DNA from: an uncultured Eubacteriales bacterium
Lineage (GTDB): Bacteria > Bacillota > Clostridia > Christensenellales > Borkfalkiaceae
DNA: 40,374 nucleotides
Reading direction: 5' to 3'
NCBI GenBank assembly: GCA_905211955.1
Contig: CAJMCT010000001.1
Location: 1 to 40,374, forward strand
The notes beneath the pieces are model-generated. The model saw only the letters and a program-made list of their open reading frames with translations, was not told where the DNA came from and made no database searches. A program made the translations under genes and the position numbers. Numbering within the stretch: the first letter of the stretch is position 1; every line of letters starts with the position of its first letter. Below are positions 11,395-30,196 of the stretch, one piece after another.

Positions 11395-13075
11395 TCAAAT
11401 GTATACTCTGACAATGAGGTCTTCCCACTGATTGGGTCTTAACATTCCTTCTCTCTCTTTACGATATGTTTTCGCCTCGTTATAGTCTATCTTAAATGAC
11501 CAAACCATTTTTTTCTTTTCGTTCGGTTTCTCAATCAAATCGAAATCCATATACCACTCATAACAAGTTTCGCTTCGCGGAATAACGGTATCAACAAATT
11601 GCGAGATTATATCTCTATCCACATAATGCTCCGTAAAATCCATTTTTTGCAAAAGGAAATTCTGTATTTTCCCCTCTACGCTATCGCTGTCCGTTCTCGT
11701 TTCTACGCCTGCTTCAAATGCGAGTCTCTGTTGTACAACTTTTTCTCTTTCTTTTTCTATTTCAGATTTATATTCCAAAAATTCTTCTTTGGAAATTTCA
11801 TCTTCCAATCGCATTCGAGTCAAACGTTTCATTTTCTCGTCCAATTTAGCAATGTCTTGATTTAACCTATCTTTTAGAGCATCAGTCTGTCTGCGTCCCT
11901 CGTGGACCCCGACTTGATAAAGAGAAGAAACCTCATATAAAATATCTTTTCTGTTTCCCCATAGTCCTGAAAAAATATGTCTTGCCATCAACTCCAATTT
12001 CCAATCACATATTTCTCGCAAATCGCAAGCTCTTCCCGGATCGATTCCGGCTTCATCCCTTACGCTTTTTGAACCATTATTTAATTGGTTATAGCATTTG
12101 TATCCGTAGATTATATCTCCGTTTTTGTTTTTTCTCCACTTATTTCGGCGCATACGATATCCACAACGACATTTCAGTTTTTTTACCCAAACGTCGCCAC
12201 TCGCATGAATCCCCGCAGTATGTATTACATCACCGTCAAGCGAAAAATAATGAACTTTACGTTTTCTTTGTTCTCTTATTTGCTTACATCGTTCCCATTG
12301 CTCTTCACTGATAATCGGCTCAAAATCACCTTTCACATACATATAAGAATCTTCATCGCGATTCCTTATTATCTTTTGGTCAAGAAAATTGTTTCTTCGG
12401 GATTTCAGATATGCGGGGTAACCTTTATAGGTAGAATTATGCAAGATACGAGAAATTTTTGAATTCTCCCATCGCACTAAACCTGAACTATCCTTACGAT
12501 GCCGCCGAATCATTTCATCACGAATTTGCGACATACCCATTCCAGCGCAATACAAATCATATATCATTTTTACGGTTTCGGCTTGTTCCGCATTTATAAC
12601 ATATGTTCCTGTATTCTTGTCTCGATCGTAGCCGAGAATATTGCCGTTTCCGTATAGAACGCCCTTGTCGCGACTAATTTTCTGCCCCGCACGAACGCGC
12701 TCGGACGTTTTTCTGCTCTCTTCCTGTGCAAGCGTAGCCATAATCGTGAGTCGAAGTTCGCCGTCACCGTCCATCGTCCAAATGTTATCTTCGACGAAGT
12801 AAACTTCCACACCGTAATTCTTCAAATCTCTCGTGACCACAAGAGTATCTACTGTATTTCGAGCGAAACGGCACACCTCTCTTGTTACAATAAGGTCAAA
12901 CTTCTTTTGCTTTGCATCTTGAATCATTTGCAGAAACGCAGGTCTTTTCTTTGCTTGCGTTTCCGTGATACCTTCATCCACATACTTTCTCAACACCATC
13001 CAATTTTGATGCCTTGTTGCAATATCGTCATACCACTGAATTTGATTTTCCAAAGCCGACAACTGCGCTTCATGT
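11395..13075 (-). pseudogene. Large serine recombinase, 3' portion of a gene split by the transposon insertion (outer-element recombinase)
   Basis: Has resolvase, recombinase and Zn-ribbon regions but no N-terminal catalytic YxRxS segment and no ATG. The frame is open upstream only to the TAA of the neighbouring gene, and the ORF-track M is a TTG. The missing 32 codons are at 28838-28935. Confidence 0.8.
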
Positions 13076-13077
13076 TC

Positions 13078-13101
13078 GGATGAGTAAACGATAGGGAGAA
13101 T
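13078..13101. repeat. Left terminal inverted repeat of the transposon
   Basis: GGATGAGTAAACGATAGGGAGAAT matches the reverse complement of the right end, AGATGAGTAAACATAGGGGAAAC. 20 nt match with two 1-nt indels. Confidence 0.7.
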
Positions 13102-13110
13102 ATGCAGCCG

Positions 13111-14799: not shown

Positions 14800-15026
14800 A
14801 TCTGTTTACCTCCGTCAGATTCCAAACAGCAAGTTCGTAACTTACCTTCTCCAAGCCGTTCTTCCGTCAGGCTTGTAAATTTTTTTATTACCAAACGCTC
14901 TAATATCTCGTATGCGGATTCTCGTGCGCCTTGCATCGATTCCGTGCTTACGATATACAGCGTTTCGTTTTTCCTTGCCCTTACCTTGTTTTTATCCGTT
15001 ACCTTATTTGTCTCTCTGTTTTGCAA
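14793..15026 (-). CDS. Hypothetical small protein upstream of, and overlapping, the recombinase gene
   Basis: The ORF overlaps the recombinase start by 7 nt. The annotated start is a TTG only 2-3 nt from AAGGAG, and an alternative ATG is at 14936. No recognisable domain. Confidence 0.35.
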   Translation of the reverse strand: MQNRETNKVTDKNKVRARKNETLYIVSTESMQGARESAYEILERLVIKKFTSLTEERLGEGKLRTCCLESDGGKQIC

Positions 15027-15047
15027 TTCTCCTTAACTTTATTGTGC

Positions 15048-15091
15048 GGATACTATGTTCTCTCTCCGGATGGATACTATGTTCTCTCTCC
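15048..15091. repeat. Two perfect 20-nt direct repeats (GGATACTATGTTCTCTCTCC) separated by 4 nt
   Basis: Read directly at 15048-15067 and 15072-15091. They lie in the intergenic region upstream of the small-ORF/recombinase unit. Confidence 0.85.
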
Positions 15092-15131
15092 ATAAACACA
15101 AAAATCCTCCTGTTCGATATTTTAGTTTTTG

Positions 15132-15428
15132 TTACGTTTTATTGTTGTTTTTCTCTTCCTCGAATTTGCGCAACTCAAAATCAAAGAAATCGTCGTAGCC
15201 GTCCGTTATCTTCGCAAGGTCGGTATTTATCTCTCCCGACTGCTCCAACAGCGACTTATATCCTTCTTCAATGAGTTTAACTTTCGTATACCCATGTTTC
15301 TTCAAAAATGCGTCTATTTCTTCCGCCGTTTCTCTCGGTATACTCGTTCCCCATACCACGTTTTTGGCTTTTCTCTCGTTCTTATGCTTTTCTTCGTATC
15401 TTTTATCTCTTTCGCTTCTCGGTTTCAT
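15132..15428 (-). CDS. Small basic protein, putative RHH-like DNA binder (paralog 2), downstream of mob
   Basis: 98 aa. ATG preceded by GGAGGG at 7 nt. Shares the KRYEEKHKNERK...SIPRETAEEIDAFLKKHGYTKVKLI core with the other two paralogs. Confidence 0.6.
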   Translation of the reverse strand: MKPRSERDKRYEEKHKNERKAKNVVWGTSIPRETAEEIDAFLKKHGYTKVKLIEEGYKSLLEQSGEINTDLAKITDGYDDFFDFELRKFEEEKNNNKT

Positions 15429-15543
15429 TCCTGAACCCTCCGTAAATATATCATCGTATCTATACGACGATTATATTTTACTGTTTTCTGCGCTCAGAGT
15501 CAAGCTCTTTTATGTGAACGGAGAGTAAAAGCCGCCTTAAATT

Positions 15544-16578
15544 TTACTTATGATTATTGTTTCTGCCTTGTTTTTCTTGCTTTTTGCGTTCTTCTTCGAT
15601 TTCCGCTTCTATCTGTTGTAACCTCGGAACTTGCCGAACGACGTCGAGCGTAAAGAGCGAAAGAACGGAATCGAAAAAGCTACCGATTGTTTTTGGCTTT
15701 CCGTGGACGATACGCTCGTATTCTTTCGGATTAGTTCTTGCAAGTGTTTTTCCCGCGTGGATATAACGATTATCGTTATCCCTTTGTCTTTGTAATGCTT
15801 CCGATTTCCGCGCATATTCGAGCGTTTCGTCCATAGCCTTTGTAAGCCGTTTTGAAAGGTCGTTGTTGTCTGCCGTTAAAGCGATTACTTGTTCCTGCAA
15901 CTTTCCGCGTTTCCGTGGAATATTCCCGCTTTTTGCCTCGGTTAAAGCGTCCGCATAAACCTGATTTTCTTCCCGTATGGCTTCCGCTTGCTCGATTATC
16001 TTTTTTGCCTTAAATTCTGCGGTGGAAAGGTGTTTTTTCTGACTACCTTCTTTTCCGCGCTGTAAACCCCAACGTTTTCCGACGGATTCATAAAAATCCG
16101 TCTGCAACTGCTGTAACTGCGGTTTATCGAAAAGTTGTTTACTGCAAAGTCTGCCGTCTTTTGTTACGGGCATCAGGTTTAAGTGCATATGCGGCGTTGT
16201 TTCGTCGTTATGAACAACCGCCGCGATAATGTTTTCTTCGCCGTAACGCTCCGCAAAAAACTTGTAGCAGTCCGAGAAAAAGTTATATTGTTCTATCTTG
16301 GCTAAACCGTCGAAAAAAGTTTTATCCGACCCTAACACAAACGAGTTCATTACAACTGCGTCTTTGCGCGGAGATAAGCCTAACTCTTTTATTCTGCCGT
16401 TTATGAACTCCGTGTAAGTTTTGCCGAAATATGGCGTGAAGCGATAATTGTTTCTCGTCCGCTCGCTGTCTATTTGTGGATTGTCCGACTTGTATTTTTC
16501 GTCCCGTTCGTTTTCCTTTTCGATAGGCGCGACGTCTTGTTTATGGTATTTCTCCATATGACACACTAAATATGAAAT
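15544..16578 (-). CDS. MobV-family relaxase (Mob/Pre plasmid recombination enzyme, TnpZ-like)
   Basis: Mob_Pre motifs include AAVVHNDETTPHMHLNLMPV (HxDE...HxH). The canonical N-terminus MSYLVCHMEKY requires an ATT start at 16578, 9 nt after AGGAGG. A conservative ATG is at 16557. The 36-codon extension in the ORF track lacks an RBS. Confidence 0.85.
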   Translation of the reverse strand: MSYLVCHMEKYHKQDVAPIEKENERDEKYKSDNPQIDSERTRNNYRFTPYFGKTYTEFINGRIKELGLSPRKDAVVMNSFVLGSDKTFFDGLAKIEQYNFFSDCYKFFAERYGEENIIAAVVHNDETTPHMHLNLMPVTKDGRLCSKQLFDKPQLQQLQTDFYESVGKRWGLQRGKEGSQKKHLSTAEFKAKKIIEQAEAIREENQVYADALTEAKSGNIPRKRGKLQEQVIALTADNNDLSKRLTKAMDETLEYARKSEALQRQRDNDNRYIHAGKTLARTNPKEYERIVHGKPKTIGSFFDSVLSLFTLDVVRQVPRLQQIEAEIEEERKKQEKQGRNNNHK

Positions 16579-16685
16579 GATGATTTTCCTCCTGAAATTT
16601 GTTTTTATTCTCATTGAGCAAAGTGTGTAGAATTTCCTCTGCCGACTGTTTTTATCAGTGGGTTCACAGCCTCGCAGAGCCCACA

Positions 16686-16717
16686 ACTTCGCCTGCGAAG
16701 TATAGTGGGCTACACTT
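16686..16717. other. Candidate oriT / RSA site for the MobV relaxase
   Basis: Hairpin ACTTCG-CCTG-CGAAGT (16686-16701) overlaps AAGTATAGTGGGCTACACTT (16698-16717). That segment resembles, from memory, the pMV158 oriT core AAGTATAGTGTGTTATACTT. It lies just upstream of mob. Confidence 0.45.
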
Positions 16718-17015: not shown

Positions 17016-17065
17016 ATATTTTTTCTTTAGGAATATTGAAAATCTTATACCTCCTCAAAATAGGA

Positions 17066-17097
17066 ACAAAAAAGCCGATGACTGTTTGCCATCGACC
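17066..17097 (-). terminator. Rho-independent terminator of the seven-gene operon
   Basis: On the minus strand: GTCGATG-GCAAACAGT-CATCGGC followed by TTTTTTGTT. It lies 36 nt after the stop of the last operon gene. Confidence 0.6.
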
Positions 17098-17132
17098 ATA
17101 AATAATTTTATATGTTTTTATAATAAGTAATT

Positions 17133-17645
17133 TTAGTTAATGCCGCATTCCGATTCACTAATTAGAAGCGGTAAAAGCCATTTTAATATCCAACGCTTTG
17201 TCGTGTCGTAATTTGAATCGTAAAACACCGCGCCGACAATCGCTTCGATATAAGGATCGTGTCCTTTATTTACTACTTTTTCGTGATCTGGAACATTCGA
17301 ATCCGATTGGAAGTGTTTTGCGTTGTATGCATATCCGATTAAACCGCATTTCAGCATAATATTATGCATAACTTCATTATTTTCAAGTTTACTTTTTATC
17401 TGCGTAATCTCGCCTTTTGTAGTTATTCCTTTCCGATAGAGATAATCGGCAATAACGGATTTCAATACAGTATCGCCGATTGTTGCAAGCCCGTCGTTAG
17501 TGTATTCGCTATGGTTCTTTCCCTCTCCGAAAACTTCTATTTTTTCCGATCTCATTGCCTTTGAAAGCCACGCGATATCGTTAAAATGGTAATGTATTTT
17601 AATTTCAAGTTCGCGCATTTTTTGATATACAACGACTCTATCCAT
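17133..17645 (-). CDS. RNase III-domain-like protein (Mini-III-sized, no dsRBD); operon gene 7
   Basis: 170 aa. NDGLATIGDTVLK (17472-17498) aligns to the RNase III signature NERLEFLGDAVL. DPYIEAIVGAVFYD aligns to the second catalytic block DxxEAxxGA. The ATG overlaps the upstream stop by 1 nt. Confidence 0.55.
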   Translation of the reverse strand: MDRVVVYQKMRELEIKIHYHFNDIAWLSKAMRSEKIEVFGEGKNHSEYTNDGLATIGDTVLKSVIADYLYRKGITTKGEITQIKSKLENNEVMHNIMLKCGLIGYAYNAKHFQSDSNVPDHEKVVNKGHDPYIEAIVGAVFYDSNYDTTKRWILKWLLPLLISESECGIN

Positions 17646-18190
17646 CAGATTTTATCTCCATTGAATACAATTCTATTAGACAAATTCACTTCCACGGATT
17701 TACCGTTTTTATCTATATCAAACCAAGAAATATCATTTTTATATCTGTCCGTCAAGCATAAAATGCGTTGATTTTCAGAGCCGAGTAACCTGCGTTTTGT
17801 TTCTTTTTCTTCCAAAACGTATTCGCCATCAAGCACAAGGTCTACGCCGGCAAGAAAGTCTGAAACTTCTTCGTATTTTCTGCCCGTAAACGATATAATG
17901 CCAAGCCCGAGTTTTTTTATTTCGTTGGTTAAAAACGGAAGATTATGTTGACAAGTAGGTTCTCCGCCGGAATACGTTACCCCTTCAATTCCAAATTCGT
18001 CAATCGACTTTTTTATTACCGAAATAATCTCGTCGATCGACATAATATGGCGCGCAATAAACGGCTGGTAATCAGGATTACAACACTCGTTACAATGAAT
18101 ATCGCAACCCTGAAACCATATACACAATCTTTTGTGCGGACCTTCTGTTTCCGTACAACGGTTTATACTCGCAACGTTAAACTTAATCAT
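17645..18190 (-). CDS. Small radical-SAM protein of the NrdG/glycyl-radical-activase-like type; operon gene 6
   Basis: FQGCDIHCNECCNPD contains CxxxCxxC (18083-18106). GGEP motif (YSGGEPT). ~181 aa from ATG 18190, which overlaps the upstream gene by 8 nt. The ORF-track start at 18208 is a TTG. Confidence 0.65.
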   Translation of the reverse strand: MIKFNVASINRCTETEGPHKRLCIWFQGCDIHCNECCNPDYQPFIARHIMSIDEIISVIKKSIDEFGIEGVTYSGGEPTCQHNLPFLTNEIKKLGLGIISFTGRKYEEVSDFLAGVDLVLDGEYVLEEKETKRRLLGSENQRILCLTDRYKNDISWFDIDKNGKSVEVNLSNRIVFNGDKI

Positions 18191-20021
18191 TGTCAAAATC
18201 AAATTCAAGCCCGTTTTTCGTCGTTTTTACTACGATTTTCGAGCCTTTCATCGACGGCAATTCTTCTTTGTTTTCAAACATAAACATAGCAAGTTCGTCA
18301 AGCAATTTATCATTGATGGCGTTAAGAATATCACGACCGCCTTTACTGCTGTCCGCTCCGCCGAGAACGTAATCTATAAATTTAAGTTCGTCTTCAAATT
18401 CAAGGTCGATACGATATTTTTCCGATATTGCTTTCTGGACCGGACGAAGTTTCGATTTTGCAATTTTTACGCTAAACTCTCTGTCTTTGATGAAGTTGAA
18501 CGGAATGATATTGCTGTAACCGATACGACCGAGAATTTCGGGACGTTTGATTTCGTTATCGAAATAGTTTTTAACGATTTTTATAAACTCATCCGCCACT
18601 TCTTCGTTTGAACCGTTCGAAGACACTTCGGACGCTCCGAGATTTGACGTGAATATAATTACGCTTTCGCTGAAATAAACCGTTTCGCCTTTGCTGTCGG
18701 TAAGTCTGCCGTCTTCGAGAATTTGCAGAAAAATATCCAGAATTCTCGGATTCGGTTTTGCTGCTTTTTCGATTTCGTCGAATAGAATTATGCTGAACGG
18801 TTTTTCTTTCACGGCGTTAGTAAGTTGCCCGCCTTCTTCATAACCGACGTATCCCGGAGGCGCGCCGATAAGTTTCTGATCACTGTTTTCCTGCGCATAT
18901 TCCGACATATCGAAGCGAATACAAGCCTGTTCGTCGCCGAAAAGGAATTTTGCAAGCGCCTTTGAAAGTTCGGTTTTACCTACGCCGGTAGGTCCGACGA
19001 AAAACAGCACGCCTTTCGGTGCAGAACGAGAAGACGATTTATGTATTCCCGTAAGTCCCATATAAGCCTTAACAACGACTTTTTCAATCTTTTCGATAGC
19101 TTCTTCCTGACCGACTACACGTTCGCTTAAAATCTTTTTGATGTTTTTAACCGACTTATAGTCGAGTTTTTCCCAAGGATTATCTTTTTCGCCGTACTTA
19201 AACAGCAAGTACAACTGCTCGAACGGCATTTTGCCTTCTTTTCTCGAAAGGCGCGCCATCTGAACGATTTCACGGTTTGTAAAATCGTCGAGCATATCGA
19301 CGTATTCGTTAAATTTGTCCGAAGTCAGGAGCGTTTCTCCGGGTTTGAGTTTTACGTCGAATCCGCTCTCGATTTTTTCCATCATTTTAGCGCGTTCTTC
19401 TCTGTCGGGTTTTGAAAGAGTAAGACAAGCGACTTCGGGGTTGCCCTGATAGAAAGAAATCGGGAACATTGCCAGTTTGCTCGTAATGAGAATAACCGTG
19501 CTTTCGTTTACTTCGGCAGACAAATACTCCGTTTTTTTATCTTTTATCGCTTTCCCGAGCATTGTGATAAGTTCTCTCTCGTCGGGCGGTAATTGTCCGC
19601 CGCTTGAAAAGAGATAATCCGCCCAATTCAGCACGAAAGCAGTTTTTCTATTCGGCTTCTTCAAGTTTTTGAATACGATATTGAAAATCTCGGCAGGCTC
19701 TTTGAACTGACCGCTTCCCGTTTTTTCTTCCGCTTGCGGTTGATTATCTTCGTCATCGTCAAAGGAATAAGCGTCTCCTTCAACTTCGACTTCATCGATA
19801 ACGGAAAGCCTTGAAACGTCTCCGTCTATGCCGTCGATACGATCCCAATACAAAACGTCGTCGTATTCCATTCCTTTGAGCATGTCCGTAAGGTATTGTT
19901 TCAGATCGACGATTTGCTTTTTGTCGTTAAGATACACGTCACCGACGTTGCCGTCGAGTATTACGCATCTTTTGATACCGACTTCGCGTTTTAACCTGTT
20001 AAACGTTGTTTGTAATGCCAT
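18183..20021 (-). CDS. AAA+ ATPase with a ClpA/ClpB D2-type module and a degenerate N-terminal half; operon gene 5
   Basis: VVGQEEAI...FFVGPTGVGKTELSKALA (Walker A at 18972-18995), LIGAPPGYVGYEEGGQLT and IILFDEIEKA (Walker B) are classic Clp D2. The first ~330 aa have no Walker A. The start is ATG 20021, preceded by GAGGTG at 6 nt. Confidence 0.75.
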   Translation of the reverse strand: MALQTTFNRLKREVGIKRCVILDGNVGDVYLNDKKQIVDLKQYLTDMLKGMEYDDVLYWDRIDGIDGDVSRLSVIDEVEVEGDAYSFDDDEDNQPQAEEKTGSGQFKEPAEIFNIVFKNLKKPNRKTAFVLNWADYLFSSGGQLPPDERELITMLGKAIKDKKTEYLSAEVNESTVILITSKLAMFPISFYQGNPEVACLTLSKPDREERAKMMEKIESGFDVKLKPGETLLTSDKFNEYVDMLDDFTNREIVQMARLSRKEGKMPFEQLYLLFKYGEKDNPWEKLDYKSVKNIKKILSERVVGQEEAIEKIEKVVVKAYMGLTGIHKSSSRSAPKGVLFFVGPTGVGKTELSKALAKFLFGDEQACIRFDMSEYAQENSDQKLIGAPPGYVGYEEGGQLTNAVKEKPFSIILFDEIEKAAKPNPRILDIFLQILEDGRLTDSKGETVYFSESVIIFTSNLGASEVSSNGSNEEVADEFIKIVKNYFDNEIKRPEILGRIGYSNIIPFNFIKDREFSVKIAKSKLRPVQKAISEKYRIDLEFEDELKFIDYVLGGADSSKGGRDILNAINDKLLDELAMFMFENKEELPSMKGSKIVVKTTKNGLEFDFDND

Positions 20022-20026
20022 TATTT

Positions 20027-21112
20027 TCACCTCTTATTTGTGTTTGTTTTTACCGTTTGGTACTTCATAGACAATATTTTATCGGGATTGCTCCAAATTT
20101 CCTGCGTTTTGGTAACATGTAAACCGTAAACTTCTTCCAAATCGTTCAGAAAAGGCTGTATATCCTTTTGGCACGCCTGTCCTTCGTAACCTCGGAAGTC
20201 GTAAATAAATTTACCGTCCAGAAACACGCGGAATTCCGCTTTTTCGCCGCTTGCTTTCAGTCCGACCAAAATCACTTCGTTTGTATCGCGTTTGATTTTT
20301 ATATTCTTTTTATCCACGATAAATCCGCGGGCGGTTATCGCCGACATTATGATTTTCAGCGACTTCTGACGGATTTTTTCGCCTACGATTTCTTCCGTCG
20401 CCGCCGATCTTATTTCGGAAAGCGGTTTATTCTCTGTTATGACTTTATCGATGATAGTCTTTTCAACTCTTGCGGCTTCGAGTTCGCGGCGAATCTTTTC
20501 ACGCTCTTTTTCGATACGCGATTCATAAGTTTCGTTTTTGAGTTCTCTGCCCGCTCTGATTAGATCATCGCCCGAAAGCGTATCGTTTTTCAGATATGCA
20601 AGGTAAGCAAACTGCCTTTCCGTTTCGTCCTGAATGGAATCGAGAAGTTTTTGAATCTCGGCGGGGATTGTAACGACTCCGTTTGCTTTATCTCTCAATC
20701 TTTTTTGATTTTCTTCGATACTGTTTTCAAGTAAACTTTGATAAAGCGCGCGCATTTCGACTAATCGTTTAGCCGCCAACTCGTTTACTTGATTTTGTAA
20801 TTCTTGCGCCGCTTTATCCACGTTATCGGCAGAATTCAGTCTTAATCTGTCGCTATCACCGCTTACAACGCCTTTTTTCGCTACTTCTTTTGCCTGCGCT
20901 TTTAAGTTTTCGATTTTTCTAACGAATGAATCTCGTTTTTCTACAATCAATTGTTGTAATGCCGCCGTCTGACTATTCTGTAAGCTTTGCGAGCCGTTTT
21001 CTATATCCGAAAGTATCTGGTCGAGTTCGGCGATCTGCCTTTCGGCAACTTCGCAAATGCTTTCGCATCTTATCGCTATCGCCTCGTAGTCTATTTGTAC
21101 CTGATGGCTCAT
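20027..21112 (-). CDS. Coiled-coil protein with a ~100-aa C-terminal globular domain, unknown function; operon gene 4
   Basis: The first ~260 aa have heptad-rich, low-complexity Q/E/K/L/A composition. The start ATG 21112 forms an ATGA overlap with the stop of gene 3. No recognisable catalytic motif. Confidence 0.6.
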   Translation of the reverse strand: MSHQVQIDYEAIAIRCESICEVAERQIAELDQILSDIENGSQSLQNSQTAALQQLIVEKRDSFVRKIENLKAQAKEVAKKGVVSGDSDRLRLNSADNVDKAAQELQNQVNELAAKRLVEMRALYQSLLENSIEENQKRLRDKANGVVTIPAEIQKLLDSIQDETERQFAYLAYLKNDTLSGDDLIRAGRELKNETYESRIEKEREKIRRELEAARVEKTIIDKVITENKPLSEIRSAATEEIVGEKIRQKSLKIIMSAITARGFIVDKKNIKIKRDTNEVILVGLKASGEKAEFRVFLDGKFIYDFRGYEGQACQKDIQPFLNDLEEVYGLHVTKTQEIWSNPDKILSMKYQTVKTNTNKR

Positions 21113-23337
21113 TTTCGTTCCCCCTTTATGGCAAATACTATATCGCGCCAATTTTCAATCGTTTCTTTATCGAAACGTGTTTGCGACTTTTCCGGATGTT
21201 GCAATCCGTTTCTGCACATACGAAGTTTATGTAATGCGGATTCTTGCTTGCCGTCGAGAATGCCTTTATCTTTTGCCATAACGAGTAAATCGTGTGCAGA
21301 CGTCATAGGCTCGGCGTTAAGCATATCTCTTAAATCGTATTGCAGTTTTACGAATAAATCGCAAATTACGTCTTTATATTTTCCGCGTGCAATCTGCTCG
21401 TCAACGTATTTTTTCGTAATTTTTTCGGGATGAGAAGACGCGCTGCGCTCAATAGACAACAAATCGTGAATCGGTTCGTAAATCTCTATAAACTTTCTGA
21501 TTGCAGCATAGGATTTAGGCGCATATTTCTCGTATTTTGCCACCGATTTCAACTTCGAATTAAGCGTAGCGTAAGCATCGAAAAATTCGTCTTCGTTATA
21601 ATCGTCTTTAAGCGTATATTCCGAAAGGCTCTCTATCCCGAGCATATCGTTCAGTTTCCACAAATTCCGTTTAATATTACAAAAAGTGTTACCGAGATCG
21701 GAATCCGAGTAAATTTCTTCGTTATTTACAACTTTCTCGGCAAAGTCCGCCACCACATTCACAACACTTAAAACGGCGTCAACGGTAAAACCTGCGCTTA
21801 AAAGTGCCTCGTAAACAATATCGTCGTCTTCCGTTTTTTTCATTTCTTTCGCAAAGGCGGAAACGTAGTCGAAATCGTTCATCCCGAGTGCTTTTCTGAG
21901 CGGATTCAACACCGACGATTTATAAATCGCATTATCGATTTTTATCTCGCTTGCGCTTTCTTCAAACAATTCTTTTGCCGTCGATACAAAATAGTTTTGC
22001 CACTCGGCATTCTTGATAAAAGCGTTATTCAGTTTTAACACAACTTCTATCTTTTCATCAACAGTTTTTGTGTTTTCAAACAGCGCCCTAATAGTTCTAC
22101 CAAAATACGAAGAATCTTTCAACGCGGCAACCGTAAACAAAACCACTTTTGCAACATCGTCGGCAAAATCTTTTTGTACGTAATACTCAAAAATTTCTTC
22201 TACCGTTTCTTTATGGCGCATTTCGTCTAAAACACTTTCGGTAAGCAACTGCATTTCAAACGTATCGCCAAGCTGGTTGCAAGCCATTTTTACGTTTACG
22301 GCGGAATAGTAGTGAAGCGCGGAAGTATCGAGCAAAGCAAACTCGGCATTCCCGCCTATTTCGCCAAGTATCTTTATCGAAAAATCTTTATCCGTTCTTA
22401 AAACGTTATCCGTTCTGTCGGTTGCAAGTCTGCCGCCGTCGATAAAAATTTTACAAGGTCGTTTCGCCTGCTTGGATACGTCGTTCGGGATATATGCGCC
22501 CACGATATCGGTAAGCTCGGAAAGTAACACCGTCGGCACGTCTACCGCATTTTTAAGAGCGTCCACAAACTTATACTTTTCTTTGGCAAGCAAGCATTTT
22601 GTCATAAATGCGGATGAATACCACTTGTCAAAATATGCGGTTTCGTCCGACGTTTCAAACGAAAATACAGCGCCGCTTTTGTTTATTACAACTTGCGTTC
22701 CGTCCTCTTTTCTGACTTGTTTTTCTTCTCCGACCTTGGGTATTTCGACTTCGACAACGCGTTCTTCGGCTTTTAGCCCTACTTTTGTCGGATTCGCTTC
22801 TATATAATCTTTAAGTCCGCTTATGTCTATCGTTTTTCCTAAAAACCTTTCGATATCTTCGTAAAGAACGGACGAATCGAGAGAGGTATACGGAAGCGAA
22901 TAACTCACGTCGAATTTCCGCGTTACGGGGCTATAAAAAATATCTTTCGTCTTTACTTTTTCTTCGCCTGTGGGAATCGCGCCTTCACGGAACATTTTTC
23001 TGCCTTTCGCAGTAAGCGAAACGTCTTTTACTCTGATTTCCGAAAAGTATTTCGGATTCATAAAATGCGACGGATCGTAGTCATAAGACAGTATTTCGGT
23101 ACCGATAAGATTTGAAATTTCTTTCCCGAAAATATAGTGCAAATCATTCGGAATCCCGAATTTAAGCAGCACGTCGCATATTTTGTCTTCCGAACCCGCA
23201 GTTTTTTCGATTACGTCGAGTAGAATATATGCAACGCCCGACGCCTTCCTTACCTCGTTATATCGCACGTTTACTTTATAGACAAGTAGCGGAAACGGAA
23301 TAGCCGTAGTGAATTTTAACAAACTTTTCTCTTCCAT
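21109..23337 (-). CDS. 742-aa protein of unknown function with a C-terminal HEPN-like Rx4H motif; operon gene 3
   Basis: No recognisable N-terminal domains. The C-terminal helical region contains LHKLRMCRNGLQH, with R-N-G-L-Q-H at 21196-21213. The ATG lies 1 nt after the helicase stop. Confidence 0.6.
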   Translation of the reverse strand: MEEKSLLKFTTAIPFPLLVYKVNVRYNEVRKASGVAYILLDVIEKTAGSEDKICDVLLKFGIPNDLHYIFGKEISNLIGTEILSYDYDPSHFMNPKYFSEIRVKDVSLTAKGRKMFREGAIPTGEEKVKTKDIFYSPVTRKFDVSYSLPYTSLDSSVLYEDIERFLGKTIDISGLKDYIEANPTKVGLKAEERVVEVEIPKVGEEKQVRKEDGTQVVINKSGAVFSFETSDETAYFDKWYSSAFMTKCLLAKEKYKFVDALKNAVDVPTVLLSELTDIVGAYIPNDVSKQAKRPCKIFIDGGRLATDRTDNVLRTDKDFSIKILGEIGGNAEFALLDTSALHYYSAVNVKMACNQLGDTFEMQLLTESVLDEMRHKETVEEIFEYYVQKDFADDVAKVVLFTVAALKDSSYFGRTIRALFENTKTVDEKIEVVLKLNNAFIKNAEWQNYFVSTAKELFEESASEIKIDNAIYKSSVLNPLRKALGMNDFDYVSAFAKEMKKTEDDDIVYEALLSAGFTVDAVLSVVNVVADFAEKVVNNEEIYSDSDLGNTFCNIKRNLWKLNDMLGIESLSEYTLKDDYNEDEFFDAYATLNSKLKSVAKYEKYAPKSYAAIRKFIEIYEPIHDLLSIERSASSHPEKITKKYVDEQIARGKYKDVICDLFVKLQYDLRDMLNAEPMTSAHDLLVMAKDKGILDGKQESALHKLRMCRNGLQHPEKSQTRFDKETIENWRDIVFAIKGERK

Positions 23338-23338
23338 T

Positions 23339-26300
23339 TTACTCTCCTAAAATATCTTTCGCCGTAAGTATTCTTCCGCGGAAGTTTATCGTGTCGATAA
23401 TTTCTCTGTATACGGGGAAGTTGATTTTATCGCGACTGTGATCGCCTTCGAGATCGGGAAGGTCGATTATGCCCGCTTCCGATAAAAACTTTTTCGAGCC
23501 GACAATAATCAAAAGTTTTCTCGCTCTTGACAACGCAACGTTGATACGCTCGAATTTTTTGATAAATTCCGCATCATACCTCGCGCCGCTCGGATTTCTT
23601 ACCATCGAAACGATAATGATATCCCTTTCATCGCCTTGGAAATCGTCAACGGTACTGATAACAAGTTTTTCGTCCGGTTTACCCGAAAAGCCCGTAAATT
23701 GATAGCCTTTACGTTTCTTTTTTATTAGTCCCGCCTGATCGCCATATGTACAAATAATACCCGCGCTCGGTCTTTCGTCGATTTTCCTTGACGGATCAAC
23801 GATAATTTTATGCTCGGAAACAAGCACTTTCGCCGCTTTGTCGAGTTCCTTTAATAGCGTTATCGCAACCTGCGCTTCCTGCTCGTTGATTTTGGACGTA
23901 CTGCCTTCGAATGCGCTCGATTCTTTTTGGTCGCAATCCACAAAATATATGTGCCGTTTGGGATCGATAACGGTATTTCCGTTGATTTTTACGGTAAGAT
24001 TATGCTCTTTTTCGTCGTCTTGTTGTTTTTTTCCTACAACAAGACCTTTACCATTACCGCCATAGAAATGATTGAACACTTCCATAATGTGGCTGTGGCA
24101 ACGGTATTGCTTATTAAGCATTACTCTGAAATCGCTCGGAACTTTCTCATACAGCGTTTTGAAGAAACATTCTTCATATAACTTTGTATATCCGTCGTTG
24201 ATTTCCTTTGTGATTTTTTCTTCGTCGAGTCCGTCGAAATCATCTCCCCGCATATGCCGCAAATCGTACATAGGCGGAAGTTGACGATGGTCGCCGACGA
24301 GAATAACCGTCTTGCCGTATAAAATAGGTATCAGCAAATCGAGAAAAGACGACTTTGACACTTCGTCCACGATTACAACGTCTATGCCTTGCGTTCTGAT
24401 ATCTACCGATTCGATTCCGTATTTACCGAGTTCGGCAAGTTGCGACGGCGTGAATCTGTCGCGGCTTGTGCAGGTAATACCGAAAACGTTTGCCGAATTG
24501 TAAAGTTCTCTCGTATATGCGGCTCTATCTTCCTCTAAGATATCTTCCTGCGACAAGTATTTTACGATATCCTTATACATCGGAATTTTTATTTTGTTTT
24601 CGGAAGACGAAGCATTATACTCGGTTTCGAGTTTATTCCACTCGTCGCTGATAATGTCGAAAGCCGTTTCAAGATTGTCCGAATCGTATTCCCTGACAAT
24701 TCCGAAATCGCGGAAAAATCTCATAATCTTTTGTTTTAGTACGGAATTCAACTCACCGTATTCTTCAATATCGGGATTTTCTCCGAGTTTTTCGTATAAA
24801 CGTTTTTTCTCGCTTATTTGGATTTTTAGTTCGTTTATTTTATCGGATATAGCGTTTTCGTTGTCTATATCGCCATTGATTTTGAATTCGATTATATTTC
24901 TCTGTGTGTTTACAATATCGGCAAGTTTTGCCTTGAATTGCGCAAGTTCGGAAGGCAATTGCTTCAATATTTCTTTTGCACCCGTAATACCGGGGACGAG
25001 AGAGTAAATCACGCTTCCGGCAATATCGAACTCCGAATTATTTTCGTATTCTTTAATCTTTTTGCCTACGGCAATCAACTCGCTTTGATTCTTTTTATAC
25101 TCTTCGTAATTAAAATCTCCTTCATTCGGTGCTTCGTCCGTATCGGGATCTCGCAAACCGCTCAAAACGTTTCGCAAAGCACGCTGGCGATTTTTTAACT
25201 CCACAATCGCGTCTTCGCTCAAAAAACGCTCTAATTCTTTGTTTATTGCCTGAATATCGGCATTAACAAGCTCGGCAACCTTATCGAGCGTTACCTCTTC
25301 AAAACAAGCAAAGCACTTTAACAGGCGTTCTACTTGTTCGGCGTATTTATCCAATACGTTGCTATCTGCGCCTTCGCCCGAAAAACGATACGATTCGACG
25401 TATTTAAGCGTTCTCGTATACTTTTCGGTATCTTCTTTTGCGGCAAGAAGTTTTTCTCTTAAAACTTCGTTTTCTCCGGTTAAACGGTTTATTTCTGAAA
25501 GCAAATTGTTCCGCTTTCTTTCCGTATCTGCATTCTCCCGTTGCAATTTCAAAAGGCGATCGTAATCGAGGCGAAGAGATTTCATCGTCGAATCGAATTC
25601 TTCTCTCGTCTCTTTGTAATTGTCGTATCTTGCTACTTGCTTTTCAAGGTTTCCGCAAATATTGAGATAGAAATTGTCTACAAGCCTTTCGGGACTGTAA
25701 TTCGTTTCTTTACCGTTTTGCGACGGAATAAGACGAAGCGGACGTATTTCGGGGATTTTAGGCAATCTGTCAAATACGTTATCGATTGCCTTATGTGTTT
25801 CGGAAGATATTAAAACTTTCTTACCGCGTTTCGTCAGTTGCGCCGTAATCTCGGCTATAACCTGTGTTTTTCCCGTTCCCGGAGGACCTTGCAACAAAAA
25901 TATACTTTCGCTTTGAAGCGCGCGTTTTACGGCAAGTTTTTGTCTGTCGTTCAAACTTTCAAGACACCACTCGGGATCTTTGATCTCTTCTACGGAAGAC
26001 TGCGCAAGCGTTTCGGGCGAAAAAAGATACGTCGGTAAGAACGGATTCTTAACGTACCCGCCCAAAATAGAAGTCAACGCCTTTTCTTGTCTGTCTATTT
26101 TTGCTTTTTCCGCACGATTATCATAAGTAAGATACCTCGGCGCAATTTCCTCGATTTGCTTTTCGATTTCTTTTACTTTGTCTGTGATATCTTGCGGACG
26201 GAAATAAATCTGATATCGGCGTATCGTTTCGTTCTCGATTTTATCAGCCTTATCTTCGTTTAATTTTTGAAGTAAAACGTTTTTTATTTCGGTTTTCTCG

Positions 26301-27964
26301 GAATCGATACCCTCTGCATATTGAAATTCTAATTGATTTTTCTTTTCCTTTTTAAGTTTATCCAGTTCTTCCTGACAACGTATTGCCAAACTCTTTTGCT
26401 TTTTCTCGACAAGTGCCATATTGCGGCGAATATAATGGTCACGCAAAGATACCTGTGCCTTCGCCATTTCTATACGCTTATCGTATTCATCGTTCAATGC
26501 CGATTCATCACCGTATAAAGCATCGATCTGTTTGTCTTTTTCGGCGGTAGACAATTTTGAGCGTCTAATTTGGTCTATTTTGGAACGAATTGAGCCGAGT
26601 CGTTTCTTCCTTTCGGTTTCAATCGGCGTGATAAGTTGAGTAATCTCGCTTTGGTATGCCTTGTATACATCTTTATCGGAATTATTTATAACGTCGGAAT
26701 CAAGTCTATCGTAAAGCTCTGTTTTGTATTCAATAAGTTGTGCGTCGTATTTTTCTTGCGTTTTAGCAGAAACGCCTGCCATATAACGATTCACCTCGGC
26801 AAGAATTATACCGTTATACTTGCTGTCGATTTCTCCGTATCTTGCAGTCAATTCTTTTTCGTAATTCTTGTCGAGAGCAGATAAATCAGGTTCTATATCT
26901 ATGTACGCGAATAAATATCGTTCACCGAGAAGATACGATTTGATACTTCTGATATTACCTTTATCGTCCGATTTCGGCGGATACGGCGACAACCCCATAG
27001 CGTCCCGAGTATATCGGTTCAGGTTAACCTCAAACTTCGGTTTTCCTTTCCCGTTTCTACCAACCGTTTCGGATAATATTTCCTTTCTGTTCTTTTCTAT
27101 CGCAACGCAAATCAGCGGAAAACCGTCGGCGCCCGCCACTTCTTTCGATAATATTATCTGCTCGCTTTTGCCGAAATCTTTAATTCCGTCCAAAAGAAGT
27201 CCTGAAAAAGCCTCTTCGTTTCTGCGATAGGATTCTTTCGTTATCATATATGCGTCGCATACGTGAACGTCGGTAATTTCTTCGCAACGCTCGGATTGTT
27301 TTCCTAAATAGTATCTGCGAAAATCGATATACCGCAACCATTGATTAAAAATGCCAATCGCCTCGGCGGGATTCGGAACGGGAAATAGTTTAGTGGCTAT
27401 TTCATTTACAAAGTCGTTTGTAAGAACAGAATCGTGCAATTCGCCGTTACCGTAATCAGGAACCGAAAACGTATTTCCGGTATTTCTGCTATATATTTCC
27501 TTCTTTGCAAACGCACAAAGCGACGAACAAAAAACTCGCTTTTCTCCGTATTTTACCGTTCGTCTGTCTATCAAATCTATCCCTTTTACGGATATTTCCG
27601 TAACGTTCCCAAATGTAACGTCGCCGATTATTATAAAGTCGTATGTTTCGGGCAGAATATGGCGAGAGTTTTCATCCGCTTCGGGGCGAATTACGATATT
27701 ACGCAAAATCTTATTCCCACGCTTATTTTCGTCCATTGTTCTGTCAAACGAAGGCAAAGATACGTTGTAATATTTTTCAGGCGTAGACGGAAACGTGTAT
27801 CCGATAAATTCTTGAAAAGTGTCGGGCGCATAACCGCCGAGTTTTCTTTTCAGCGTTTCGTATTGCTCGTTTAACGATTGTGTGAAAAAGTCGTTTCTCC
27901 CCCAAGCCTTATCACCTAAACCTTTATCCAAATTATCCAAGAAATTCAGATATAAGTAAGCCAT
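23339..27964 (-). CDS. 1541-aa Upf1/DNA2-like superfamily-1 helicase with large uncharacterised N-terminal and coiled-coil regions; operon gene 2
   Basis: Motifs read: I LLQGPPGTGKTQ (25865-25888, about residue 693), II VVIVDEVSK (D about residue 1200), III VGDHRQLPP, IV LNKQYRCH, V TVDDFQGDERDIIIV, VI NVALSRARK. Confidence 0.8.
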   Translation of the reverse strand: MAYLYLNFLDNLDKGLGDKAWGRNDFFTQSLNEQYETLKRKLGGYAPDTFQEFIGYTFPSTPEKYYNVSLPSFDRTMDENKRGNKILRNIVIRPEADENSRHILPETYDFIIIGDVTFGNVTEISVKGIDLIDRRTVKYGEKRVFCSSLCAFAKKEIYSRNTGNTFSVPDYGNGELHDSVLTNDFVNEIATKLFPVPNPAEAIGIFNQWLRYIDFRRYYLGKQSERCEEITDVHVCDAYMITKESYRRNEEAFSGLLLDGIKDFGKSEQIILSKEVAGADGFPLICVAIEKNRKEILSETVGRNGKGKPKFEVNLNRYTRDAMGLSPYPPKSDDKGNIRSIKSYLLGERYLFAYIDIEPDLSALDKNYEKELTARYGEIDSKYNGIILAEVNRYMAGVSAKTQEKYDAQLIEYKTELYDRLDSDVINNSDKDVYKAYQSEITQLITPIETERKKRLGSIRSKIDQIRRSKLSTAEKDKQIDALYGDESALNDEYDKRIEMAKAQVSLRDHYIRRNMALVEKKQKSLAIRCQEELDKLKKEKKNQLEFQYAEGIDSEKTEIKNVLLQKLNEDKADKIENETIRRYQIYFRPQDITDKVKEIEKQIEEIAPRYLTYDNRAEKAKIDRQEKALTSILGGYVKNPFLPTYLFSPETLAQSSVEEIKDPEWCLESLNDRQKLAVKRALQSESIFLLQGPPGTGKTQVIAEITAQLTKRGKKVLISSETHKAIDNVFDRLPKIPEIRPLRLIPSQNGKETNYSPERLVDNFYLNICGNLEKQVARYDNYKETREEFDSTMKSLRLDYDRLLKLQRENADTERKRNNLLSEINRLTGENEVLREKLLAAKEDTEKYTRTLKYVESYRFSGEGADSNVLDKYAEQVERLLKCFACFEEVTLDKVAELVNADIQAINKELERFLSEDAIVELKNRQRALRNVLSGLRDPDTDEAPNEGDFNYEEYKKNQSELIAVGKKIKEYENNSEFDIAGSVIYSLVPGITGAKEILKQLPSELAQFKAKLADIVNTQRNIIEFKINGDIDNENAISDKINELKIQISEKKRLYEKLGENPDIEEYGELNSVLKQKIMRFFRDFGIVREYDSDNLETAFDIISDEWNKLETEYNASSSENKIKIPMYKDIVKYLSQEDILEEDRAAYTRELYNSANVFGITCTSRDRFTPSQLAELGKYGIESVDIRTQGIDVVIVDEVSKSSFLDLLIPILYGKTVILVGDHRQLPPMYDLRHMRGDDFDGLDEEKITKEINDGYTKLYEECFFKTLYEKVPSDFRVMLNKQYRCHSHIMEVFNHFYGGNGKGLVVGKKQQDDEKEHNLTVKINGNTVIDPKRHIYFVDCDQKESSAFEGSTSKINEQEAQVAITLLKELDKAAKVLVSEHKIIVDPSRKIDERPSAGIICTYGDQAGLIKKKRKGYQFTGFSGKPDEKLVISTVDDFQGDERDIIIVSMVRNPSGARYDAEFIKKFERINVALSRARKLLIIVGSKKFLSEAGIIDLPDLEGDHSRDKINFPVYREIIDTINFRGRILTAKDILGE

Positions 27965-27965
27965 T

Positions 27966-28490
27966 TTACTCCCCCTTCGTAAATTTACGATACTTATCGA
28001 ATATATCTATATAATCCAAAAATTCCTTTATTTCTGCAGGCGACATACCGTTTGTAATACCGCCGACTTTATCGAGTATAACGCTTTTCGTAAACGGATC
28101 GAGTCCGTTTAATGCTTGCCCCGCAGTCAATTGCTGTTTTAACGCATCGTTTTCGCTTTGTAATCTTTCAAGTTCGTTTGTCAGATTTTCCACAGAAGAA
28201 AGCGACTGCTTTTTATCCTGAATACTGTCTTTCAGAATACTCGAAATTCTGTTGACGTATTGTGCGAGAATATCGGGATCGGACTCGTCAAGAACCAACT
28301 CCAATTCATCTTCGCTTTCCTTCCCGAAAAGATAGAAGATTTTATATTGCTTATCTTTAGGAATATCCGAAAAGTTTTCTAGATTTCGATAATTGTAGAT
28401 CGTCGCTTTGGATATTTCGAGATATTTAATTAAATCCGTAACCTTAATAGAAAATTTCGTAACGAGTCTTTCAAATAATTTCGTTGTCAT
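27966..28490 (-). CDS. HTH DNA-binding protein with a central coiled coil (putative operon regulator); operon gene 1
   Basis: N-terminal HTH-like VTDLIKYLEISKATIYNYRN. Coiled-coil segment LTNELERLQSENDALKQQL. The stop lies 1 nt before the helicase ATG. Confidence 0.6.
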   Translation of the reverse strand: MTTKLFERLVTKFSIKVTDLIKYLEISKATIYNYRNLENFSDIPKDKQYKIFYLFGKESEDELELVLDESDPDILAQYVNRISSILKDSIQDKKQSLSSVENLTNELERLQSENDALKQQLTAGQALNGLDPFTKSVILDKVGGITNGMSPAEIKEFLDYIDIFDKYRKFTKGE

Positions 28491-28519
28491 TTTTGGTACC
28501 TTCTTATCCGTTTGACATC

Positions 28520-28548
28520 ATTATACTATATTAAAAACATAATGTCAA
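28520..28548 (-). promoter_or_regulatory. Consensus sigma-A/sigma-70 promoter of the seven-gene operon
   Basis: On the minus strand: TTGACA (28548-28543), exactly 17 nt, then TATAAT (28525-28520). It lies ~30 nt upstream of the gene 1 ATG. It is bracketed by the 7-bp inverted repeat TTGACAT/ATGTCAA (28542-28548 and 28512-28518). Confidence 0.65.
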
Positions 28549-28814: not shown

Positions 28815-28837
28815 GTTTCCCCTATGTTTACTCATCT
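28815..28837. repeat. Right terminal inverted repeat of the transposon
   Basis: Plus-strand GTTTCCCCTATGTTTACTCATCT is the reverse complement of AGATGAGTAAACATAGGGGAAAC, which matches the left end at 13078-13101. Confidence 0.7.
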
Positions 28838-29624: not shown

Positions 29625-29981
29625 TTATTTTACATAAACGATTTCATTTAAGATTTCTTCTTCGATAAGCCGTTGCATTTCGGTTTCCCTTTTCAGGTTT
29701 TCCATAAAGTCCGCCGACTTTTTGAACCGCTCTTCTTTCGAAAATTTTTCGTACATCGTTTCGTACAGTTCATCGGCGGCTTTATCTACGCCGTGCAGGT
29801 ATTCAGGAAGATTCGCAATCGTCCAATCGATTCCTTTGTCCTCCAAATACTGTTTAGCAAGCGTTCCGTACTTGCCGTAAACGTGCTTTTCGGGTTTAAC
29901 AGCCTTTTGATAAACCTTGATTTCCGCTACGGTCAATCCCTCGCCCGCTTCCGCTTTTCGCATTACTTTTGCTTTATTCAT
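29625..29981 (-). CDS. TnpV-like transposon-associated protein
   Basis: General resemblance, from memory, to clostridial TnpV proteins (YGKYGTLAKQYLED...PEYLHGVDKAADELYE...EMQRLIEEEILNEIVY). The likely start is the internal M (MNKAKVMRK) at 29981. Confidence 0.5.
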   Translation of the reverse strand: MNKAKVMRKAEAGEGLTVAEIKVYQKAVKPEKHVYGKYGTLAKQYLEDKGIDWTIANLPEYLHGVDKAADELYETMYEKFSKEERFKKSADFMENLKRETEMQRLIEEEILNEIVYVK

Positions 29982-30196
29982 AGTTCCACCTCCGATTATC
30001 TTTCGTCGTATCAATACGATAGCATCCGAATCTGTATTTGTCAAGCTGTTTTGACCACTTTTCATAAAATATTTTCAGAATCTGTCCGTAAAACCGATTT
30101 TGCACTAAAACTATTGATATTTGCATAGTTTTAGCGCATTTTCGGCATAGAAAAGGAACGCTCCGAAGAACGTTCCTTATACCTGTATATATTTTA

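Follow-up and report, generated by a model that had tools for sequence, protein, structure and literature searches.

We have analysed a stretch of 40,374 nucleotides (the window; contig CAJMCT010000001.1 of an uncultured Eubacteriales bacterium) that contains a tightly packed seven-gene operon. Its five central genes, which we call the block, code for a Upf1-like helicase, a protein with a predicted HEPN domain, a coiled-coil protein, a Clp-like ATPase and a small radical S-adenosylmethionine (radical-SAM) enzyme, and one further gene lies at either end. The seven open reading frames (ORFs) are all on the minus strand, from 27966-28490 down to 17133-17645, and the opposite strand carries no competing long ORFs. 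Start codons (ATG) were chosen by alignment to homologues. The genes and their flanking signals, in the direction of reading, are the following.

28520..28548, minus strand: promoter-like site TTGACA-17-TATAAT, 5' of gene 1 (sole 12/12 consensus match in 16600-29000)
27966..28490, minus strand: gene 1, 174 aa, N-terminal helix-turn-helix (HTH)-like segment and short coiled coil (weak Pfam HTH matches)
23339..27964, minus strand: gene 2, 1541 aa, Upf1/DNA2-like superfamily 1 (SF1) helicase, MkoA/CnuH type (Pfam, PADLOC, PDB, motif positions)
21109..23337, minus strand: gene 3, 742 aa, predicted RNase effector with C-terminal HEPN domain (family motif, Pfam matches of homologues, AlphaFold2 (AF2) model)
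20027..21112, minus strand: gene 4, 361 aa, coiled-coil protein whose C-terminal globular domain is conserved (homologue alignment)
18183..20021, minus strand: gene 5, 612 aa, Hsp100/ClpB D2-type AAA+ ATPase (Pfam, NCBIfam, PADLOC)
17645..18190, minus strand: gene 6, 181 aa, small radical-SAM protein, NrdG/PflA family of glycyl-radical-enzyme activases (profiles, PDB alignment)
17133..17645, minus strand: gene 7, 170 aa, RNase III catalytic domain only (Pfam Ribonuclease_3 2.3e-11, Ribonucleas_3_3 1e-9)
17063..17097, minus strand: terminator-like stem-loop (17097-17073; 10 pairs, 5 of them G-C) followed by a T-run

Single nucleotides separate gene 1 from gene 2 (27965) and gene 2 from gene 3 (23338), genes 3 and 4 overlap by an ATGA (21109-21112) and 5 nt (20022-20026) lie between genes 4 and 5, while genes 5 and 6 overlap by 8 nt (18183-18190) and genes 6 and 7 by one (17645). 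GGAGG-like ribosome-binding sites were found upstream of genes 1-5. The terminator-like site was the top-ranked one in the region and lies 36 nt beyond the stop codon of gene 7. The totals of promoter-like and terminator-like sites were no higher than in shuffled sequence, so that only these two individual sites carry weight. An Rfam scan of the whole window gave no RNA family. An earlier description made from the DNA letters (the sequence-only reading) had placed seven minus-strand genes with tight junctions between one consensus promoter and one terminator; all coordinates, protein lengths, gaps and overlaps were reproduced exactly, with the promoter as the only perfect match and the terminator as the best site of its kind. 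The seven-gene operon is confirmed.

A census of co-occurrence was made by tblastn from two seeds, the HEPN protein and the Clp-like protein, in which loci with room for the whole core were taken as informative. In 60 of these 62 loci the helicase, HEPN, coiled-coil, Clp-like and radical-SAM genes were found in the same order and on the same strand, with the identity of the HEPN protein ranging from 21 to 97%. Homologues recovered with the HEPN seed at 72%, 58%, 52%, 46%, 44% and ~22% identity were all located in the same five-gene block, and the products encoded downstream of the HEPN gene in related blocks have similar sizes (~360 aa, ~612 aa for the Clp-like protein and ~181 aa for the radical-SAM enzyme). 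With the Clp seed, metagenome contigs yielded 259 relatives and IMG/VR 4. Both exceptions are decayed copies. One of them (locus L040, 6516-12886) has genes 1, 5, 6 and 7 intact, while an internal deletion took away most of the helicase, the HEPN protein and some of the coiled-coil gene, and the other (L088, 11814-11954) has a truncated radical-SAM gene. Furthermore, two loci (L011 and L099) show all five genes turned round together with respect to an adjoining cluster of radical-SAM and SPASM genes. The conserved unit is made of five genes (2-6) and not of seven, genes 1 and 7 being replaceable accessories. The sequence-only reading had taken all seven as one functional unit; the operon and the co-inherited block stand, and the unit has to be reduced to the five genes shared by the 60 loci.

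The largest protein, encoded by gene 2, matches Pfam AAA_11 (8e-31) and AAA_12 (3e-37), and in PDB sequence comparisons DNA2, IGHMBP2, Sen1 and Upf1 (3e-20 to 4e-16). Its residues 443-1526 align with positions 402-1097 of the 1112 in the PADLOC profile of the Mokosh helicase MkoA (PDLC03920, 5.1e-87). The Walker A motif lies at 693-700, so the lysine K699 that had been assigned to it beforehand, together with the Upf1/DNA2-like SF1 class, was right. Between Walker A and Walker B (1200) there are ~500 aa, largely helical and of coiled-coil-like composition, with coiled-coil-like segments at 781-849, 885-936 and 1006-1064. The N-terminal ~480 aa are uncharacterised; SmpB-like and RelE-like domains were not detected there, structures not being compared.

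The gene 3 protein itself gave no match in Pfam, PADLOC or NCBIfam. It belongs to a family of 573+ clusters at 90% identity (173 at 50%), and across 44 full-length members, down to 17% identity, R709, N710 and H714 are nearly invariant in an RNxxxH form, the R and the H being invariant among the distant subset. The HEPN-like Rx4H motif formed by R709 and H714 had already been pointed out from the sequence and is thus a family feature. Half of the diverse members (22 of 44) match Pfam DUF4145, which we take to be a family of the HEPN clan, and others match HepT-like, HEPN, RiboL-PSP-HEPN or Apea-like HEPN families. The AF2 model is confidently all-helical over ~370-740, with block means of pLDDT (local distance difference test, predicted) mostly of 80-90 in the C-terminal region; the combination that characterises the HEPN superfamily, R-x4-6-H within an all-alpha domain, is thereby predicted for gene 3. 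Residues 1-270, modelled separately (pLDDT 83.6), form three helices and a two-strand wing between long beta arms. The protein would therefore consist of a winged helix-turn-helix (wHTH)-like domain set on long beta arms at its N-terminus, a beta domain in the middle, helical repeats and a C-terminal HEPN domain (R709-N710-x3-H714), as far as the models and the motif indicate. Neither the 742-aa family nor its C-terminal 150 aa gave a meaningful match when their profiles were searched against PDB sequences. A glycyl-radical motif (RVxG[FYW]) considered in the stretch CRNGLQH was rejected, the glycine varying among distant homologues.

Gene 4 is always located between genes 3 and 5. Its C-terminal domain contains an invariant F-x-G-Y-x-G-Q-A-C loop, in which G308, Y309, G311, Q312, A313 and C314 are fixed in 12-15 homologues. 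No significant family match was obtained for it, and a PDB-sequence profile search with the coiled-coil family gave nothing meaningful. In its N-terminal MSHQVQIDY and in the C-terminal pattern DG-x-hydrophobic ... G-x-x-G-x-x-C ... L-x3-G the protein has some likeness to the cyanobacterial DUF1257/DUF2997 proteins (small proteins linked to AAA+ ATPases); this idea was dropped, as neither family was listed when 12 homologues were scanned against Pfam with a limit of E<=10.

The Clp-D2 type of AAA+ ATPase and the NrdG-like radical-SAM enzyme that the sequence-only reading had named are both borne out by the profiles. The gene 5 protein matches Pfam AAA_2 (9e-51) and ClpB_D2-small (4e-4), and NCBIfam ClpB with 5.5e-75, aligned over the D2 part only (558-852 of 853) and with a score of 253 against a cut-off of 1232. 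The Walker A GPTGVGKT, the Walker B stretch ILFDEIEKA and the GYVG pore loop GAPPGYVGYEEGG are invariant across 5 divergent homologues. The PADLOC matches to PDC-M37B (2.5e-33) and DolB (5e-20) cover the AAA core only (residues ~281-476). The N-domain, the D1 AAA+ module and the coiled-coil middle domain of true ClpB are missing. Instead there are 290 N-terminal residues that match no family in Pfam or NCBIfam and that, judged by eye, may resemble a degenerate AAA+ fold lacking the Walker A lysine. No other protein of the block is as well conserved: against HEPN-protein identities of 46-58% the Clp-like protein stands at 90%, and against ~21% it still reaches 61-63% (L001, L010, L011 and L012), and the high conservation extends to the unmatched 290 residues. 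A glycyl-radical motif was also considered in the C-terminus of the Clp-like protein and rejected, the glycine not being kept in distant homologues.

Gene 6, in turn, matches Pfam Fer4_12 (1.3e-21) and Radical_SAM (6e-9). Its NCBIfam NrdG match (1.3e-20, 73.9 bits) is under the equivalog cut-off of 126.1, and the match to the PHROG phage NrdG is of 6.6e-23; the NrdG-profile matches are full-length. In the alignment to the PflA structure (8fo0, 3e-5) the CxxxCxxC, the N-terminal G-P-x-x-R loop and the SAM-binding GGE are all kept, and none of these three motifs varies among 15 homologues. In 8 related loci with annotation, none of the called genes codes for a glycyl-radical enzyme.

The genes at both ends are variable. 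Gene 1, found in 45 of the 60 loci (49-100% identity), has weak Pfam HTH matches at residues 8-38 (best E 0.029), and the remaining loci have in its slot an unrelated protein of 309-338 aa, often behind a small Xre-type HTH gene. It is an accessory, probably a regulator or an adaptor. Gene 7 is present in 23 of the 60 loci. The catalytic signature of RNase III consists of E-x-L-E-x-L-G-D and D-x-x-E. Compared with the Campylobacter RNase III in the PDB it keeps the GD and EA..GA motifs and E133, and the second signature Glu is replaced by Ala54; it has no double-stranded-RNA-binding domain and its NCBIfam RNase III score is 52 against a cut-off of 166. Elsewhere the 3' slot is occupied by a DEDDh exonuclease (PADLOC Cas-associated DEDDh, 1.5e-10), by a DEDDh together with an RNase III-like gene, by an ADP-ribosylglycohydrolase (5e-37), by a DUF4238 protein (2e-10), by a protein with a DUF4365 restriction-endonuclease-like domain (PADLOC pAgo-associated restriction endonuclease, 2e-16), by unknown proteins or by nothing. 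In two loci (L071, 4401-5675, and L077) a 424-aa protein found in this slot matches nothing in Pfam or PADLOC and has an R-x4-H pattern (ERSGMVHGG), so that it could be another HEPN-type effector. Of the earlier predictions for these two genes, an HTH regulator and an RNase III-like protein, the domains persist, though weakly for gene 1, and their places in the core do not. A fixed core combined with a swappable nuclease-type 3' slot is a layout typical of defence systems.

Genes typical of mobile elements frame the operon on both sides.

29625..30065, minus strand: TnpV-like gene of the carrier element (Pfam TnpV 1.2e-7)
15544-16686, minus strand: Mob_Pre relaxase (Pfam Mob_Pre 1e-53)
13111-14799, minus strand: large serine recombinase with DUF4368 (Pfam Resolvase, Recombinase, Zn_ribbon_recom, DUF4368)
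11395-13062, minus strand: second large serine recombinase (Pfam recombinase-type domains)

With TnpV on one side and Mob_Pre and the serine recombinases (11395..16686) on the other, these genes support the view of the block as cargo of a Tn4451-like mobilisable element. A copy of the block with 44% identity (L095) is framed likewise by TnpV ... TnpW/TnpX. The cargo of a mobilisable transposon close to restriction-modification (R-M) and Abi genes, as the sequence-only reading had it, is indeed what we find. The run of defence genes beside the element (270-10139) includes GmrSD (270-2087), a Type III R-M pair (Res helicase 3518-6130 and N6/N4 methylase 6142-7863) and AbiEii (8467-9402), which is preceded by an unannotated gene of 245 aa (9402-10139). 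On the other side, an aminoglycoside-2''-adenylyltransferase-family gene (31250-31741, Pfam 1.8e-60) lies between an AbiEii-like gene (30197-31108), whose match starts at profile position 98, and a DUF6088 gene (32007-32627); this nucleotidyltransferase looks like an insertion into or beside an AbiE-type pair. Further on, the GC content climbs from ~0.36-0.40 to 0.48-0.50 across the conjugation-type genes at 33000-37000, which include a 1028-aa protein with a segment resembling type IV secretion system pilins and a TraG/VirB4-like ATPase (35877-37295), and this shift suggests a mosaic of elements of different origin. A short minus-strand ORF just upstream of the AT-rich promoter stretch (28830-28920, MVENSMVMPTGVNTNRNRQRRVVFYGRVSSEDE) resembles the first ~30 residues of a serine recombinase, is ended by a stop and may mark the point of insertion of the cargo in the carrier.

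Across the loci the carriers are mobilisable transposons, elements resembling integrative and conjugative elements (ICE-like) and recombinase-flanked islands. Other copies of the block adjoin Bacteroides-type conjugation genes, serine recombinases and a Lamassu-like locus, MobA/MobL relaxases, AbiTii or Fic. The genome matches were to metagenome-assembled genomes (MAGs) of Clostridia, to scaffolds labelled Christensenella and Faecalibacterium and to one Bacteroidales MAG, and the contig names of the Clp-seeded relatives are mostly from human gut. The whole-block copy of the Bacteroidales MAG (L005, JAEDDH010000027.1) is 94-99% identical to those of three Clostridia MAGs (L003, L004 and L006), reflecting either a recent cross-phylum transfer on a mobile element or a binning error. 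No match to the 742-aa protein was found by tblastn in annotated plasmid and phage collections, and blastn of genes 5-6 against plasmids gave generic Clp ATPase similarity only. In the most divergent clade (L011, 15798-20273, and L099, 648-5127) the neighbours of the block are three radical-SAM genes, one of them with SPASM, and a ScmC-like gene. In one contig these genes lie downstream, on the strand of the block, and in the other upstream and on the opposite strand. They probably form an unrelated peptide-maturation cluster.

We propose, with a probability of roughly 0.55, that the block is a mobile operonic conflict system, most likely directed against phages or plasmids, with a five-gene core in two parts. 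A defence or conflict system that targets RNA is probable, and sensing by the helicase coupled to an RNA-targeting effector is the most plausible outline. The first part would be a pair of the type found in Mokosh and CoCoNuT, two groups of systems that are compared below, made of the Upf1-like helicase with its coiled-coil insertion and of the wHTH-like/helical/HEPN protein. The helicase would scan RNA or RNA-DNA and engage foreign or aberrant substrates, and the HEPN protein, docked on it via the coiled coils, would cleave RNA upon this engagement. The second part, i.e. the coiled-coil adaptor, the hexameric Hsp100 unfoldase and the translationally coupled radical-SAM enzyme, would take the slot that McrB and McrC hold in CoCoNuTs. 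The Clp-like ring would act on a polypeptide, because the Hsp100 pore loop is kept, and the whole part is most likely protein-directed, because the unfoldase and the radical-SAM families both act on proteins. It might remodel or radical-modify a component of the system itself, as a switch or licence for the nuclease, or a protein of the invader, and in this way license, reset or execute the response. The product of gene 1 may regulate the system, while the 3' gene would supply a second nuclease or another effector.

The known members of the NrdG/PflA family act by hydrogen abstraction from a protein glycine. By speculation, the invariant G-Y...C loop of gene 4 is a candidate substrate of the radical-SAM enzyme. 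To a more specific version we give little credence: the enzyme, fed by the unfoldase, would put a glycyl or other protein-centred radical on this loop or on a phage protein, and this oxygen-sensitive step would arm or execute immunity. Such a step would fit the apparent restriction of the family to anaerobic habitats. If true, it would bring protein-radical chemistry into prokaryotic immunity for the first time and be an anaerobe-specific defence mechanism.

Several points weigh against the proposal of a conflict system. We infer the defence role, the RNA target, the physical coupling of the parts and all the radical-SAM chemistry. The HEPN assignment of gene 3 comes from the motif and from the homologues, in which the positions of the Pfam matches were not visible. 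Foldseek searches of the PDB gave non-significant TPR/solenoid matches only for the full-length AF2 model of gene 3 and nothing significant for the model of its 270 N-terminal residues, so that the description as a wHTH like that of CnuE follows only the order of secondary structures. Likewise, the comparison with CnuH, CnuE and MkoB was drawn from descriptions and profiles and not from their sequences. No Gly_radical or NRDD domain and no recognisable Gly-radical motif was found in the operon proteins. Finally, the sampled loci are mostly gut metagenome contigs with many close relatives among them, so the 60 of 62 are not as many independent events, although they span a wide range of divergence.

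The constant association with mobile carriers and the four IMG/VR copies would also suit a module that serves the carrier for addiction, stabilisation or competition between elements, in which a HEPN toxin is kept in check by the unfoldase module, HEPN domains being common among the toxins of toxin-antitoxin systems. However, ~11 kb and five enzymes far exceed the known addiction modules, and the swappable nuclease slot and the adjoining defence genes fit defence islands, so we find this explanation unlikely; it is, besides, not exclusive with defence, since abortive-infection systems often serve both ends. Somewhat less probable to us is that two independent modules travel together, a Mokosh-like pair of helicase and HEPN protein on one side and a separate coiled-coil/ClpB-like/radical-SAM module on the other. 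Helicase-effector pairs are self-sufficient elsewhere (Mokosh type I; the cnuHE relatives, PMC11090510), ClpB-like ATPases appear in other candidate systems, as the DolB and PDC-M37B matches illustrate, and the Clp protein evolves far more slowly (61-90% identity against 21-58% for the rest). Yet either seed recovers the same block, neither half occurs alone within the sampled loci, and the order is fixed and the junctions tight or overlapping in 60 of the 62 loci, down to 21% identity of the HEPN protein; moreover, the joint inversion of the five genes in L011 and L099 affects both halves at once.

A housekeeping or stress pathway of anaerobes carried on mobile elements (RNA surveillance, ribosome rescue or control of NrdD/PFL) could be imagined from the roles of Upf1-like helicases and RNase III in RNA quality control, from ClpB-type proteins being stress chaperones and from the closeness of the radical-SAM enzyme to NrdG and PflA. 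We regard it as very unlikely in view of the patchy distribution, the 94-99%-identical copies assigned to different phyla, the mobile and defence contexts and the variable accessory genes. Besides, all seven proteins are far under the NCBIfam equivalog cut-offs (ClpB 253/1232, NrdG 74/126, RNase III 52/166) and no glycyl-radical enzyme was seen beside the block in any locus examined. The lowest probability goes to a radical-SAM cluster for a natural product, similar to the ribosomally synthesised and post-translationally modified peptides (RiPP-like), or for nucleotide modification, which seems to us scarcely credible: the radical-SAM gene, the three-gene radical-SAM/SPASM/ScmC cluster next to the block in L011 and L099 and the weak PADLOC viperin matches (1e-4) speak for it, but the operon contains no gene for a precursor peptide, a transporter, a SPASM domain or nucleotide biosynthesis, the SPASM cluster appears in one clade only and in either orientation, and the viperin matches cover just the generic cluster-binding segment.

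Metagenomes from the human gut and from other anaerobic habitats are rich in members of the family, as indicated by the 259 Clp-seeded relatives and the 173 HEPN clusters at 50% identity. If it is a defence system, it may shape the dynamics of phages and plasmids in the gut microbiome, given the near-identical copies assigned to Clostridia and to a Bacteroidales MAG. To our knowledge, neither a protein unfoldase nor a radical-SAM enzyme of the glycyl-radical-activase type has a known role in immunity. The block also offers a testable case for the role of a glycyl-radical-activase-like enzyme where there is no glycyl-radical enzyme.

The comparison with known systems places the block next to two of them. 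No system was named for it by PADLOC (2023), NCBIfam (2026), Pfam or PHROGs, and literature searches on this combination of genes found no description. The statement of the sequence-only reading that no named system fits is correct in that no library assigns the block, and it missed the link to Mokosh given by the MkoA match (5.1e-87). Mokosh type I consists of the helicase MkoA and the nuclease MkoB, of the phospholipase D (PLD) type. Like it, the block has a helicase, matching MkoA over ~1,080 residues, and a nuclease-type effector gene directly downstream. However, no PLD or MkoB match was found in the 7 proteins (Pfam, PADLOC) or in 44 gene 3 homologues (PADLOC), the downstream effector is of the predicted HEPN type and fits none of the PADLOC models, not even with 44 members of its family scanned, and genes 4-6 have no counterpart in Mokosh.

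The second relative is CoCoNuT, whose Types II and III combine cnuH-cnuE with cnuB/McrB-cnuC/McrC and are predicted systems, not experimentally characterised (Bell, Makarova, Wolf, Koonin, eLife 2024, PMC11090510). In CnuH, a Upf1-like helicase, Walker A is followed by a large insertion that is helical and coiled-coil, helicases of this type typically precede the gene of a wHTH effector (the cnuHE module), and this effector, CnuE, encoded downstream of the helicase, has an elongated wHTH N-terminus and a nuclease (HEPN) C-terminus; McrB-type AAA+ GTPases and homologues of McrC are linked to these pairs, and in some cases so is CnuA, a coiled-coil protein that stands alone (PMC11090510). Set beside CnuH by description, gene 2 shares the insertion after Walker A. 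Gene 3, the next after the helicase, would end in a HEPN domain like CnuE, with an N-terminus of DNA-binding type, and gene 4 would parallel CnuA. In both cases a motor of the AAA+ superfamily is encoded just downstream, the reading frames overlap tightly and RNA is the predicted target. On the other hand, McrC/DUF2357 is absent from the block, and McrB gives only a generic AAA+ match (E 8e-4, against 5.5e-75 for ClpB). The McrB/McrC pair defines CoCoNuT as a branch of McrBC, whereas the block has there a Hsp100 unfoldase and a radical-SAM enzyme; nor does it contain a TerY-P triad.

Other likenesses concern single genes. Dodola (DolA, a DUF6414 protein, and the ClpB-like ATPase DolB) and the PADLOC candidate PDC-M37 are defence or candidate-defence operons that likewise include a ClpB-D2-like AAA+ ATPase, but the match is limited to the AAA core, DolA and PDC-M37A are absent and the 290-aa N-terminal domain of gene 5 is unique to its family. 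Gene 6 resembles NrdG and PflA in its size, in the CxxxCxxC directly after an FxGC strand, in the N-terminal loop S-x3-C-x3-(D/E)-G-P-x-x-R and in the GGEP motif, and it differs from them in lying below the equivalog cut-off, with no NrdD, PFL or other glycyl-radical enzyme nearby, and in its fixed place in an operon that also codes for a helicase, a HEPN protein and an unfoldase. The known radical-SAM enzymes with anti-phage activity are the prokaryotic viperins; they act alone on nucleotides, whereas the NrdG/PflA family acts on proteins. A radical-SAM enzyme in a defence setting is what the block has in common with them, gene 6 belonging to another family and the viperin profiles (1e-4 to 1e-3) matching the cluster-binding segment only.

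Since the PLD partner and the McrBC pair are absent, we place the block in neither Mokosh nor CoCoNuT, though it is clearly related to their helicase-effector modules, and it looks like an undescribed arrangement. If it is a defence system, the Upf1-like helicase-effector family to which Mokosh and CoCoNuT belong would gain a third kind of partner module, made of an unfoldase and a radical-SAM enzyme of the glycyl-radical type.

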